Of a stretch of 64,000 nt of DNA, positions 6,276 through 44,598 are shown in pieces (positions within the stretch are counted from its first letter, which is position 1; every line of letters starts with the position of its first letter). This DNA is from Escherichia phage vB_EcoM-G28. The stretch is from the sequence record NC_054916.1, one strand, 5' to 3'. The translations under genes were made by a program, and so were the position numbers. The notes beneath the pieces are model-generated. The model searched no databases and had not been told where the DNA came from. It saw only the letters and a program-made list of their open reading frames with translations.

Positions 6276-6294
6276 AAAGGGCCGAAGCCCTTTA
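6276..6294. terminator. Stem-loop GGGC-CGAA-GCCC with flanking T-run
   Basis: Perfect inverted repeat with tetraloop; same core at 7547-7560, 9918-9929 and 36187-36200. Confidence 0.5.
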
Positions 6295-7494
6295 TTTTGT
6301 AATAATGTCAAACTGTTCTTTAAAGCAGAAGCTTGAATCTTGATGCTGATACAAAAATTCATAAGCTTTTTCGCGTTCGCGGTCATAAAGAGTTCGGTCA
6401 GATGACAGTTCTTTAATACGTTCAAATGTTGATTCCATGTCATTTTCATCAAACCAAATGATACCGCTATCATGCGAGGTCAAAGGAGTATTATCAACAC
6501 GGAATTTTAAATTTTCGCCAGTAGATTTCCAAAATACCGGAATTGTTCCACATGCACCAAGCTCGAGATGAGTATATTCTAAAGAGCGCTGTAGATATTT
6601 TTTATCCAACTTACTCAACTGATAACCAAAACCGGATTTACTCATACGTTCAAGCATTTCGCTATTTACATAACGGTCAAGAATTTGCGTTGGTAAATTA
6701 GGAGCAATTTTAATTTGGTCTACTTGATGAAGACGATAATACTCGTATGGAATTCCTTTTTCTTTAATAGGAATGAACGCTGGAGAACGTTCCAGACCTT
6801 CCATAATAGTACTTAGTCCTGCAGGTTTAAGATGTTTTTCATGAAAATCAAACATCTGATAAAAACCTTTCCATGTAGTCGTACGACCAATCCAACGGTT
6901 GATATTCATGTTAATTTCAGAAACATCTTTCCAGTAGGTTGACCGAACCTTCGCAATATCCATAGGAGGCTGAAAGTTATATACTGTCGGTGCTTCTTCA
7001 ATATCATCAAACAGAGAAACTGTTTCAGGATACCATTCTTTCATCAGAACTTTATTAAAATCACCATTATCAGAATGGCTAAAAATAACATCAGCTCGAC
7101 GAACAGTTTCTTCTAATCCCAAATTTCGGCGTAAAGAAAGAGAAGAATGGTCATGTTGATAAACTACAACACGAACCGAAGGTTTAATGTTATCAATAAT
7201 TTTTTTATAGTTATTAATAGTGTCTTCTTCAACTGAAGTAGCAGGAACTGAATTGATAATTAGAATATCACAATCATTTACCAGCTTAAGTGTTTTATCG
7301 TATTCTTTTGCCAATAAAACCGGAATTGAAAATGATTTATAATCATGCGCGCAATTACGAGTAAATGATTTATCTTTAGCATAAACCAAAGTTACTTCAT
7401 GACCATTCTTAATAAACCAATCACGTTGCTCAAGAGAAAATTTAGTTACACCACAACCTTCAAGACCTCGAGCCATAAAAATACATACTTTCAT
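6292..7494 (-). CDS. a-gt: DNA alpha-glucosyltransferase
   Basis: 400 aa; translation matches T4 alpha-glucosyltransferase along its length as I recall it (MKVCIFMARGLEGCGVTKFSLEQRDWFIKNGHEVTLVYAKDKSF...). Confidence 0.95.
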   Translation of the reverse strand: MKVCIFMARGLEGCGVTKFSLEQRDWFIKNGHEVTLVYAKDKSFTRNCAHDYKSFSIPVLLAKEYDKTLKLVNDCDILIINSVPATSVEEDTINNYKKIIDNIKPSVRVVVYQHDHSSLSLRRNLGLEETVRRADVIFSHSDNGDFNKVLMKEWYPETVSLFDDIEEAPTVYNFQPPMDIAKVRSTYWKDVSEINMNINRWIGRTTTWKGFYQMFDFHEKHLKPAGLSTIMEGLERSPAFIPIKEKGIPYEYYRLHQVDQIKIAPNLPTQILDRYVNSEMLERMSKSGFGYQLSKLDKKYLQRSLEYTHLELGACGTIPVFWKSTGENLKFRVDNTPLTSHDSGIIWFDENDMESTFERIKELSSDRTLYDREREKAYEFLYQHQDSSFCFKEQFDIITK

Positions 7495-32835: not shown

Positions 32836-33309
32836 TTATTTGAACGATTTAACGTACTGAATAGAACCTTTACTATTTACAAAGGCAATTTTACCATTTT
32901 TATTATACATGGTAGCAGTACGTTGATAGCCATAAGTTTGTTTACCAGATTGATAACCAACTAATGCGAAATTATCTTCACCCATTTTATTCTGTTTAGC
33001 GCGAATGCGTTCATGACCATGTGCCATAAGAACCTTAGCATCACCAGTTGCAATGGATCGACGAGTTTTTTCATCTTCAACTGTATTAACAAAGTCGTCA
33101 AATGAATCAAATTTAGCATGAGATTTATTATACAATTTTCCATCTACTGCATAATTATATCCCTGTACATCCATCTCAACTTCTGTACCATCATCCAATA
33201 CAGCAGTGATTTTTTGACCTTTTTTAAATTTCAAAAGATCAGTAAAAGATTCAGCAATAATTTGAGAATTAATAGCTGCTTCAGTGATAAATTCTTGATA
33301 TGTTTTCAT
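32836..33309 (-). CDS. Internal (capsid-packaged) protein with capsid targeting sequence
   Basis: N-terminus MKTYQEFITEA matches the T4 internal-protein capsid targeting sequence; ipII/ipIII position next to e. Confidence 0.7.
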   Translation of the reverse strand: MKTYQEFITEAAINSQIIAESFTDLLKFKKGQKITAVLDDGTEVEMDVQGYNYAVDGKLYNKSHAKFDSFDDFVNTVEDEKTRRSIATGDAKVLMAHGHERIRAKQNKMGEDNFALVGYQSGKQTYGYQRTATMYNKNGKIAFVNSKGSIQYVKSFK

Positions 33310-37088: not shown

Positions 37089-37352
37089 TTATTTCATATT
37101 ATTGAAATGTTCTTCTGCAATTTCGTCGTTATCATGGTAAACTTTAGAAGACAGTTTAACATAACTTTCAGCAGTGAACATGTTAATCACAACTTTTACA
37201 GTATACCACTGACCGTCTTCATTACCCATTACCGCATAGGTTTCAAACATCGGATGATCAGGACCGATAACTTTAATATCATTCACTGTACGACCGAAAT
37301 CTTCTGAAACGCATTTCATAAAGAAGTTGAACAGTTCGCCGTAATTATCCAT
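37089..37352 (-). CDS. Hypothetical protein (about 87 aa from MDNYGELF)
   Basis: Track start is TTG; ATG at 37350-37352 has GGAGAA SD. Confidence 0.55.
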   Translation of the reverse strand: MDNYGELFNFFMKCVSEDFGRTVNDIKVIGPDHPMFETYAVMGNEDGQWYTVKVVINMFTAESYVKLSSKVYHDNDEIAEEHFNNMK

Positions 37353-37394
37353 TTCATTCTCCAAATTGTTTTCTGTATCAGTAGTTGATAGTTG

Positions 37395-37424: not shown

Positions 37425-37554
37425 CCGTTTTGTGAAAAAATTTTAAAAATTTTTAGGGAATTCTAGGGCGGGGAGGGGCAATTAAAAGATAGGATAATAT
37501 ATTATAAAGGGTAGAAACTAAATGATGCCTAGAGAGGCCCAGAAAGGCCTAGAT

Positions 37555-37585
37555 ACCAAAAAGCCCCAACCTTTTGGTCGGGGTT
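37555..37585 (-). terminator. Rho-independent terminator (CCCCGACC-AAAA-GGTTGGGG then CUUUUU on minus strand)
   Basis: Hairpin is perfect only on the minus-strand RNA (G-U pair); a second hairpin AGGCC...GGCCT lies just 3'. Confidence 0.6.
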
Positions 37586-37592
37586 AAGAATG

Positions 37593-37862
37593 TTATTTGA
37601 TTTGTTTAGCAGACCAAATGCGGTCTTTAATAATTTTTTGGATGTCTTCAACATACTCAAGAGAGTGAACATGTGGATTATCTTTGAAACTATAGGCACG
37701 GGCTAACTTTTGGCCTTCGGTTTTGATTACTAAAAGCTCTTTAAGGATAGCTTCATACTTAGCGATAATTCCTTTAACAATATTTTTTTTCTTGTGTAGC
37801 TTTAGGATCTGCTTTAGGAGCAGGTTTACCCGAAGCCTTTGCAAAAGCAGCGCCAGTAGCAA
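37593..37862 (-). CDS. ORF with no ATG start (TTG in track); possibly the frameshifted 3' part of the upstream internal-protein gene
   Basis: No in-frame ATG; overlaps 37774-38067 across an A8 run; followed by a terminator. Confidence 0.3.
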   Translation of the reverse strand: MLLALLLQRLRVNLLLKQILKLHKKKNIVKGIIAKYEAILKELLVIKTEGQKLARAYSFKDNPHVHSLEYVEDIQKIIKDRIWSAKQIK

Positions 37863-38067
37863 CTAGACTTTTCCAGGCCATACTAACCGCATTTCCCGTA
37901 AATCCTTCTGCTTTCATGTCGCGAGCAAATTGGAATCGTGATTCGTCAGAAGCATCTTTATAGGAATATTTACCCGCTGCAATGGCTGCTTTTGCAACAG
38001 CTTGAATTTCGGTGCTAGATGCTTCATTTAACACCGCTTCATTTAAAAATTGAGCATATGATTTCAT
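37774..38067 (-). CDS. Internal-protein-like gene with capsid targeting sequence (97 aa)
   Basis: N-terminus MKSYAQFLNEA with LNE-A protease site; AGGA SD; late promoter upstream. Confidence 0.6.
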   Translation of the reverse strand: MKSYAQFLNEAVLNEASSTEIQAVAKAAIAAGKYSYKDASDESRFQFARDMKAEGFTGNAVSMAWKSLVATGAAFAKASGKPAPKADPKATQEKKYC

Positions 38068-38103: not shown

Positions 38104-38111
38104 TATTTATA
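38104..38111 (-). promoter_or_regulatory. Late promoter TATAAATA (minus strand)
   Basis: Exact octamer about 36 nt upstream of the 38067 ATG. Confidence 0.5.
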
Positions 38112-38113
38112 CT

Positions 38114-38140
38114 AAAAAGCCCCAACCTTTCGGTCGGGGC
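38114..38140 (-). terminator. Rho-independent terminator (GCCCCGACC-GAAA-GGTTGGGGC then UUUUU on minus strand)
   Basis: Hairpin plus T-run at the 3' end of the stable-RNA region. Confidence 0.6.
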
Positions 38141-38145
38141 TAAGC

Positions 38146-38457
38146 CTTGCGGCAACCTTGTCGGGGTTCCACCTGCTAAGGCAAGTGTTTGTACGAAACG
38201 CCGGGATTCGAACCCGGTTATTAAGCAGTTGACGCTACTCAATATTTTTAAAAGGCCATATCTCGACCATATCCGAACGTTCCGTCAAAAACGCTACTCG
38301 GCTTACGGCAAAGATATTTCCTCGAATCGATAATTCGGTGCGCCGTTTCTGCTGTGATGTAAGGGGATATTAACAAATCATAAAGATTTATTAAGACCAG
38401 TCCTTACTCAGGGAACATCAGTCCGACGTCTTGCCGGTAGCGACCCGGCTTCTTGTC
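38146..38457 (-). ncRNA. Stable small-RNA region (position of T4 species 1/2 RNAs rnaC/rnaD)
   Basis: Non-coding 310 nt between tRNA-Arg and a terminator; tRNA-like T-arm CCGGGTTCGAATCCCGG; exact RNA ends not determined. Confidence 0.4.
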
Positions 38458-38536: not shown

Positions 38537-39202
38537 TTAAAATTTCATTTTTCGACCTTTAAACCATCCTTCTGGAATTGGGTCAGTTTTCTTAATACGT
38601 TTAGAAACTTTTTCATCTAATGAATGAATCCACATCATACCAAATTGGGAATTCTTTTCGCCCTGTTGGTGTTTATTTCTGGCGTGAGATTCTTTCATTT
38701 TATTAATAGTTTCATCTGAATGGGACTTACCCAAGAAAGATTTAGTATTTGAAAATTTCTCTCTATACTTAGGATTATCCCAAAGCTGTTTAAACCTTTC
38801 TGAACCCATTTTACGATATTTTTCTTTAAGGTCTGGGTCGTTCTCAAATCTGGTTTTAAAAGCGGCAACTCCTTTTAAGGAAGCTTCTTTCTTTTTATCC
38901 AAATATTCTTTAGTGTTTAAATGGTCCCAACCACCTTCACCACCTAATTTCAAATTATAAACGTCAGGGCGCTTTAAAAACTCTTCAGTCACAATATTCT
39001 TTTCTGACTCAAACATAGAGGTTTTATCGTCAAAGAACTCTAATATTTCTTTAGAGAAATTTTCTATACCATACTTGTCTTGGGCTCTTTTTAATAATTT
39101 ACCAGAACCCATATATCCATCATCTAAATTTTCGGTAGAATGAGCGCCTATATAGATTTTATTATTAATTTTATTTGTTATTTTATAAGTGTAATGGAAC
39201 AT
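38537..39202 (-). mobile_element. segB: GIY-YIG homing endonuclease SegB in the tRNA cluster
   Basis: 221 aa; N-terminal YTYKIT...IYIGAHS GIY-YIG motif; same size and location as T4 segB. Confidence 0.8.
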
Positions 39203-43321: not shown

Positions 43322-44146
43322 TTAGATATTTGACCAGACTTTGTTTGCAGAGAAACGTTTTCCTTTTGAAACGAACTGCTGAAGTGGCATCAACACAACG
43401 TTCGCCCAGTCTTTCGGGGCGATTTCAACAAGGCTACCCATAATATTACCGGGTATATATGCCTTAATCATTTGGTCTGCACCCCTAAATCCTTTCACTT
43501 GACTCCAATCAATTTTTAATTTCGTTTTATTAGTAATAGTAGGTGTATTTGCATATTGCTTTAAAAGCTCTTCTAGGAATTGCTGACGAGCTTTAGGTGG
43601 AATATAGTGCAAGTTTAATCCGTACATTAAATTATGCTTACCTAAACCAAGGTAAATTATCAAAGGAAATTTATCCCAGTAAGGAAGAGTTTCCTTGTGT
43701 TTAGCATCATAAGCAAAAGCATATATTCGTCCCGGCTGCGGGCGAACAACTTTATGTCCTTTTACTTGCTTAATAGTTTCAGCAAACCACTTTCTGGTTT
43801 TATTATTAATTGCTGCACCTTCATTACGAATTTTATCACGCAATGTTTGTCTGAATGAATTTATCATAAGCAGTTGTCTTTCTTGCTTATTGAGTTTATT
43901 CATTGGTTTTGATTCAAGCTTTTGAATCTTTTCAGCCGTTTTAATTCCTGAAGCATATTTTGACATTGCTGAAGTAAACGTAGAGTATTTGATTCCTCTT
44001 TCTTCAGCAAATTGCTTTCCTGTCATTCCTTTTGCTTTGGCCTTTTTATATTCAAGACCTATCTGAATCCATTTCTTTTCGTTTAATGATTGCTTAACCT
44101 TTGGAACTTGGGGAGTGCTTTCATTAATTATTTGAAAAATAGCCAT
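43322..44146 (-). CDS. 2: DNA end protector gp2
   Basis: 274 aa basic protein; size and position as T4 gp2. Confidence 0.8.
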
Positions 44147-44598
44147 TATGCCCCCTTAAAGCCAAGAGCTCGTAATCCATCTTCTGTTAGAATTCTAAAT
44201 TTTATTCCACGCTTTTCAGCTAAAGACTGTGCTGCTTTCCATTTGTCGGTATTAACAGAATATGTATAAATTTCATTCATAAATCTTTTCTTCGCTGCAG
44301 TTGTTAGATGTGCTGGTTTAACTGGTGGTTGTGTTTCTTTTTTAGGTTTTATTTCAATAAAAAATTCTTGTCCAGAAGAATCTTTCATCCAAATATCCAT
44401 GAAGTATCTACGTTTTTTCCCTTCGGCATTACAAAAATAAGGAATTACTGCTGTTTCACTACCCCATGCAATAATTTCTGGATTTTTATCTAACCATTCA
44501 AAAAAGAATTTTTCCCAATTTGATCTATACGTAATTTTTTTAGGGTCACCTCTATACTTTGATATATTTTTAGGAACCCATTTTCCAGAATATGCCAT
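44146..44598 (-). CDS. 4: Head completion protein gp4
   Basis: 150 aa; size and position as T4 gp4. Confidence 0.8.

Follow-up and report, generated by a model that had tools for sequence, protein, structure and literature searches.

Two overlapping reading frames in the genome of Escherichia phage vB_EcoM-G28 are the two parts of a single gene for a 157-aa protein, put out of register by one additional A in a homopolymeric run. The length of this run is polymorphic among related phages, frameshifts at the run have recurred, and the A8 allele carried by G28 has spread. We consider it likely that G28 carries a natural frameshift allele (A7 to A8) of an accessory gene, produced by slippage at a contingency-type homopolymer. 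The window in which this gene was analysed is the whole stretch of 64,000 nucleotides from sequence record NC_054916.1, and all coordinates given without another source refer to it.

Results

Two frames meet at an A8 run

On the minus strand of the window, an ORF that starts with ATG (38067..37774, 97 aa, MKSYAQFLNEA...KATQEKKYC*) overlaps a second ORF in the +1 frame (37862..37593, minus strand, ...HKKKNIVKGII...SAKQIK*), which starts with TTG and contains no ATG. An earlier note on this DNA had pointed to these two ORFs and to a run of eight T's at their junction, and the sequence bears it out on both points: the frames meet exactly at the T8 run of the plus strand (A8 in the mRNA) at 37783-37790, across which frame 0 reads GCT ACA CAA GAA AAA AAA TAT TGT TAA. 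The note had also predicted that a shift in the run would fuse the two frames into one protein of about 160 aa. Removal of one A from the run gives a repaired translation of 157 aa, and this is the protein that relatives with an A7 run encode.

As it stands in G28, the ORF at 37774..38067 (minus strand) encodes an N-terminal helical domain and a Lys/Pro/Ala linker followed by the out-of-frame residues KYC*. In the repaired translation, the coding sequence of a C-terminal helical hairpin (37593..37782, minus strand, IVKGII...SAKQIK*) is intact in the +1 frame. We read the whole of this C-terminal frame after the A8 run and found no ATG, GTG or TTG, which leaves the downstream ORF without the independent start that the earlier note had considered. 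Since its frame has no start codon, the C-terminal domain cannot be made by itself.

The A8 run at 37783-37790 is the only homopolymer of at least eight nucleotides in the 64-kb window, and only two runs of seven are present. At a G+C content of 35%, chance alone would, by our arithmetic, produce about seven A8/T8 runs. Long runs are thus strongly avoided elsewhere in the window, which makes the A8 run conspicuous.

The gene lies in a cassette between two repeat copies

The window comes from a mosaic Tequatrovirus, of which a 20-kb stretch is ~96-97% identical to many such phages and an exact match to none. The T4-type tRNA cluster (eight tRNAs) and the rnaD and rnaC homologues lie upstream of the gene, which is encoded on the minus strand. 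In T4, rnaC and e.8 have no gene between them, and the repeat hairpin found there is present in a single copy. At this place the window has an inserted cassette of ~520 bp, composed of a predicted late promoter, the gene and a terminator, with a copy of a ~35-bp direct repeat on either side, each containing a terminator hairpin. Alignment of the two copies places the left one, at the upstream edge of the cassette, at 38109..38144 and the right one, at the downstream edge, at 37553..37588 (both minus strand). Within the left repeat, a terminator scan located a hairpin at 38141..38118 (minus strand), which marks the 3' end of an rnaC-like small RNA. The terminator that had been noted after the downstream ORF corresponds to a terminator-like hairpin 3' of the gene, within the right repeat (37583..37564, minus strand). 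Reading of the sequence further revealed TATAAATA, a motif of T4-type late promoters (38104..38111, minus strand) that lies 37 nt ahead of the ATG, and a Shine-Dalgarno-like AGGAAA between this motif and the gene.

The cassette is missing from T4 and from ~300 other relatives that match its flanks. These relatives match the flanks and not the gene because the cassette is inserted between the repeat copies. The cassette would be lost or gained by recombination between the copies, in keeping with the ~300 cassette-less relatives.

Several features of the surroundings were recorded along the way. T4 rnaC and rnaD, which specify the stable species 1 and species 2 RNAs, share 97% identity with the minus-strand stretch 38118-38400; no Rfam family matched this stretch, the nearby Rfam matches being tRNAs alone. 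Between tRNA-Arg and the next tRNA, the minus strand carries a 221-aa GIY-YIG homing-endonuclease-like ORF (38537-39202), at the position that segB occupies in T4. In some relatives, vB_VIPECOOM02 (735 onward) and EcNP1 among them, the next gene downstream is a 564-nt CDS (187 aa). The vB_VIPECOOM02 record labels this CDS, too, as phrog_2280, which suggests a paralogue in tandem. In the window, that position is taken by an e.8-like gene (37364..37089).

The undivided gene is the normal form of the family

About 400 GenBank phage records carry the gene, which belongs to PHROG 2280, a family of unknown function. The majority state in relatives is an A7 run within a single CDS of 474 nt that encodes 157 aa, as in AR1, ECp13, JB75, ESh16, NBG2, KRT47, HY01, phiD1 and others, so that the predicted fusion is the gene in its normal state. 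Over residues 1-157 the fused protein has a PHROG 2280 match (E = 7e-61); in Pfam it has none. An exhaustive search of representative sequences returned 11 matches, the weak ones being uninformative on function. Distant homologues, in Yersinia phage fHe-Yen9-01 and Klebsiella phage KP01, are single proteins of 173-182 aa and lack the A-run.

The AlphaFold model of the fused protein (mean pLDDT 73) places an N-terminal four-helix bundle at residues 18-71 and a C-terminal helical hairpin at residues 88-154 (AF2 helices at 88-125 and 132-154), joined by a Lys/Pro/Ala linker of low confidence (residues 72-87). The A-run codes for residues 94-96, just beyond the linker. A search with this model found no significant fold match in PDB or BFVD outside the gene's own family. 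Between diverged lineages of the family, pN/pS is 0.05-0.15 in the C-terminal domain and 0.25-0.3 in the N-terminal part; by these ratios, purifying selection acts on the family as a whole, and the gene is not decaying.

The N-terminus resembles that of T-even internal proteins

To judge from its N-terminus, the gene product is probably an internal protein that is packaged and injected. The first ten residues, MKSYAQFLNE, followed by Ala (38038..38067, minus strand), had been described as being of the capsid-targeting type, and they do resemble MKTYQEFIAEA of T4 IPII and IPIII. With T4 IPI, IPII and IPIII and with T2 ipIV the protein shares an N-terminal M-K-[ST]-Y-x-[EQ]-F-[LI]-x-E followed by A. 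This capsid-targeting-like motif is retained across all lineages of the family, and the junction between the last E and the A of MKSYAQFLNEA is a predicted prohead-protease cleavage site. The internal proteins of T-even phages have been described as diverse injected anti-defence proteins, with the targeting sequence as their sole common feature (PMC3012670). Like the T4 and T2 internal-protein genes, the gene described here is small and lysine-rich, is preceded by a late promoter motif, and lies in a variable region with patchy presence among relatives. In the Yersinia phage fPS-65, the site equivalent to the promoter of the window is annotated as a predicted late promoter. Unlike the T4 and T2 internal proteins, the product has no sequence or fold similarity to them outside the targeting sequence, and unlike T4 ipI and ipII/III the gene is located between rnaC and e.8.

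The window also contains a second N-terminus of the capsid-targeting type. It belongs to a minus-strand ORF at 33309..32836 (157 aa, MKTYQEFITEA, Pfam DUF7412), which is probably an ipIV-type internal protein, as annotated in T2 (474 nt). This ORF is equal in length to the gene under study (157 aa) and unrelated to it in sequence.

The run varies from A6 to A9 among relatives

A comparison of the homopolymer length in related phages, as the earlier note had proposed, identified the run (37783..37790, minus strand) as the frameshift site in the alignment and showed that its length varies from A6 to A9, the A7 majority giving one 157-aa CDS. We read the run directly in 35 sequences from GenBank, IMG/VR and metagenomes, a sample enriched for unusual alleles: 24 were A7, six A6, four A8 and one A9. 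The shifted alleles lie on different haplotypes and represent at least seven independent events. A8 is carried by the clade of the window, by ph0021 and by an ESCO10-like metagenome contig; A6 by SfPhi01 / PP355091, by a P0004-like lineage and by an a48-like contig; and A9 by fPS-65. Among 60 GenBank records drawn at even spacing from 399, in which those with a deviating match length were checked by sequence, two were shifted at the run. A metagenome scan with a loose pattern yielded a small sample, in which 7 of 120 loci among the matches listed were the gene. A pattern scan of IMG/VR yielded three loci, all A7.

Once the run is reset to A7, every shifted allele stays open as far as the canonical stop. 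The repaired proteins are often identical to that of an in-frame relative; that of the A8 metagenome allele, for example, is the ESCO10 protein.

BLAST match lengths had suggested a large A9 clade, which direct reading of the run ruled out; ZN18, NBG2, KRT47, HY01, IME537 and FriedrichMiescher are A7, with indels outside the CDS. In EcNP1 (MK886800.1, locus ~363-370), the gene is broken by a change from T5 to T4 inside the targeting sequence. The product there is MKSYAQF*, and the depositors' annotation uses an internal start.

One A8 allele has spread by recombination

Public accessions from vB_EcoM-G28, T4_ev240 and ECO07P3 contain the 97-aa product in identical form, as do 15 contigs, among them assemblies of several gut metagenomes (MUNK18, LIXU21, SRR14000879, ERR2241744). 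All retrieved copies are A8, and all have a Thr92 codon (ACA or ACG) directly before the run; among the sequences read, no A7 allele had this codon. The Thr92/A8 allele occurs on three combinations of flank haplotypes. The window has one N-terminal haplotype and shares with ECO07P3 an identical 310-bp 3' block that includes A8. ECO07P3 has an N-terminal haplotype that differs from that of the window. In T4_ev240 and the metagenome contigs, the 3' half is identical to that of A7 phages, for example phiD1. The occurrence of Thr92 together with A8 on three flank combinations indicates one persistent allele that has been spread by recombination. Between haplotypes, the N-terminal ORF of the A8 clade has accumulated 12 synonymous and 0 amino-acid changes. 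In the C-terminal region of this clade private substitutions are few, and recombination has given it flanks that match A7 alleles.

These data bear on the first of the three causes put forward by the earlier note, a sequencing indel. Homopolymer length errors are common on some platforms, and a true A7 run could have been miscalled or misassembled with an extra base. Such an artefact is highly improbable here: the 310-bp block with A8 is identical in ECO07P3, the same 97-aa product was recovered from three independently sequenced phages (G28, T4_ev240 and ECO07P3) and from 15 contigs of separate metagenome assemblies, all with A8, and A8 is strictly tied to a private Thr92 codon that a miscall could not create. 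An allele that persists and is moved by recombination excludes this explanation for practical purposes.

Recoding at the run has little to recommend it

Another cause suggested by the earlier note was programmed slippage producing two isoforms. Under such recoding, whether programmed or exploited, one gene would give both a 97-aa and a 157-aa product, as in dnaX or IS elements, through slippage in transcription or a +1 shift of the ribosome. The run does lie at a domain boundary, with the low-pLDDT linker at residues 72-87 and the C-terminal helices from residue 88; all shifted alleles keep the downstream frame intact, the A8 allele has endured in nature on several backgrounds, and RNA polymerase slippage is possible on A/T runs of 8-9 (PMC6260861; PMC1088944). 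The out-of-frame layout is however a minority state in a family with an A7 majority and distant homologues that have no run at all. The A6 and A9 alleles would require the opposite correction to A8, and A6 is too short for slippage. In addition, folding of the 93 nt downstream of the run is no more stable than that of shuffled sequences (z = 0.37), and the shift site, AAA AAA then UAU, offers neither a slow codon nor a stop.

Transcription of T4 late genes relies on the core RNA polymerase of the host. The repair of A8 would take a deletion of one nucleotide. In reporter assays with the E. coli RNA polymerase, slippage was undetectable on poly(A) shorter than 8, and deletion slippage was seen on none of the poly(A) runs up to A8 (PMC6260861). 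Genes rescued by slippage, such as tssM of Citrobacter rodentium (PMC4256274) and those of IS elements (PMC1088944), are likewise interrupted at an A-run with the downstream frame intact. Their runs are longer, of 9-11, and corrected transcripts have been demonstrated. The gene studied here differs from them in having a run of eight and in requiring a deletion, for which the reporter data (PMC6260861) predict little or no correction. With a layout that is not conserved, no downstream RNA structure and no support for deletion slippage, we regard recoding as quite unlikely.

Decay and the conservation of the gene

The remaining cause proposed by the earlier note, a recent pseudogenising frameshift, comes closest of the three. 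A frameshift it is, but neither private nor very recent, as the three flank haplotypes attest, and the gene family itself is under purifying selection. In its plainest form, decay would make the frameshift a step in the loss of a dispensable gene and the run a hot spot without adaptive meaning. The absence of the cassette from T4 and ~300 other relatives, the second kind of inactivating frameshift in EcNP1 and the unknown function of PHROG 2280 are all consistent with this. The constraint on the family (pN/pS of 0.05-0.15 in the C-domain and 0.25-0.3 in the N-domain) speaks against it, however, as does the fact that none of the shifted alleles has acquired a second lesion. The purely synonymous variation of the A8-clade N-terminal ORF (12 synonymous versus 0 amino-acid changes) also speaks against decay. 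Decay alone is therefore an unlikely account.

Discussion

The reading that we favor remains a natural A7-to-A8 frameshift allele that arose by slippage. The classical basis for such an event is the slipped-strand frameshifting described by Streisinger in T4. The extra A would have arisen by slipped-strand mispairing of this type during DNA replication, at the longest homopolymer of the region, a site at the end of the linker between the N-domain and the C-terminal hairpin. The resulting protein of 97 aa retains the targeting sequence, the N-domain and the linker and lacks the C-terminal domain, and full-length protein would be made from A8 in trace amounts at most, through errors of the polymerase or the ribosome. 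In this scheme the gene would be expressed late, as predicted from its promoter motif. Switching between the full-length and the truncated form at the run may be frequent and is probably reversible, in the manner of a contingency locus.

We infer the hypermutability and reversibility of the A8 run from other runs in related phages. Homopolymers of at least six nucleotides in T2, T4 and T6 have been described as contingency loci (Gomez, Barrick, Waters 2025, bioRxiv 10.1101/2025.10.21.683753). According to that preprint, one-base indels in stocks occur at ~3e-4 on average, the 7-nt runs read from part of the T2 table gain or lose one base in ~5e-4 to 4e-3 of reads, homopolymer frameshifts revert 1,000-10,000 times more than point mutants, and reverting frameshifts let the phage escape defence systems; the published examples are a 7-nt run in agt (positions 289-295, the type example) and an A6 in rIIA. 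The gene studied here shares with these loci its genus, Tequatrovirus, an A/T homopolymer of at least six inside an accessory ORF, and +1/-1 frameshifts that truncate the product or switch the gene off. Frame-changing variation in repeat length, by which a contingency locus is recognized, is found here between genomes (A6-A9 in 35 sequences). Unlike the loci of Gomez and colleagues, where the off state is a minority of 1e-3 in a stock, the off state here is the consensus of isolates and of metagenome contigs, has been spread by recombination, and affects a different and uncharacterised gene.

Both 7-nt runs of the window also lie within ORFs. The first, at 7200-7206, corresponds to positions 289-295 of agt and matches the published T2 run; it is in frame in this ORF (6292..7494, minus strand, 1203 nt, 400 aa, Pfam AGT E = 4e-237). 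The second, at 44535-44541, is in an ORF at 44146..44598 (minus strand, 150 aa) with a TnsA-like endonuclease domain (PF08722). It is in frame here and is a candidate for another hot spot.

Strong purifying selection on the C-domain implies that its loss should usually be costly. That the A8 allele is widespread despite this conservation, and has come through several recombination events, could mean that selection favors the short form, or that the full-length protein continues to be produced in some amount. A stronger version of our interpretation takes the injected internal protein to be under a true contingency switch, with Thr92/A8 as its short-form state, kept by selection. The C-terminal hairpin would then be toggled on (A7) or off (A6, A8, A9), and would counter one host defence while being sensed by, or costly against, another. 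We regard this adaptive version as rather unlikely, if a little less so than decay.

For the annotation of T4-like genomes, the consequence is that the hypothetical proteins of 97 aa, of 108-112 aa and of 93 aa in several of them are frameshifted forms of one gene of 153-157 aa, and that such forms should be taken neither for separate families nor for sequencing errors. In themselves, these observations leave current understanding unchanged and add one more example of frameshifting at a known kind of homopolymer hot spot. With at least seven A6-A9 events at one run and one of the alleles common, they support the contingency-locus proposal made in 2025 for T-even phages. An uncharacterised gene with a capsid-targeting-like N-terminus and a C-domain that is conserved yet repeatedly switched off is a candidate for tests of trade-offs between defence and counter-defence in injected proteins. 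If the adaptive reading is true, this would be the first natural case in which the off state of a contingency locus has become fixed and is spreading in wild T4-like phages.
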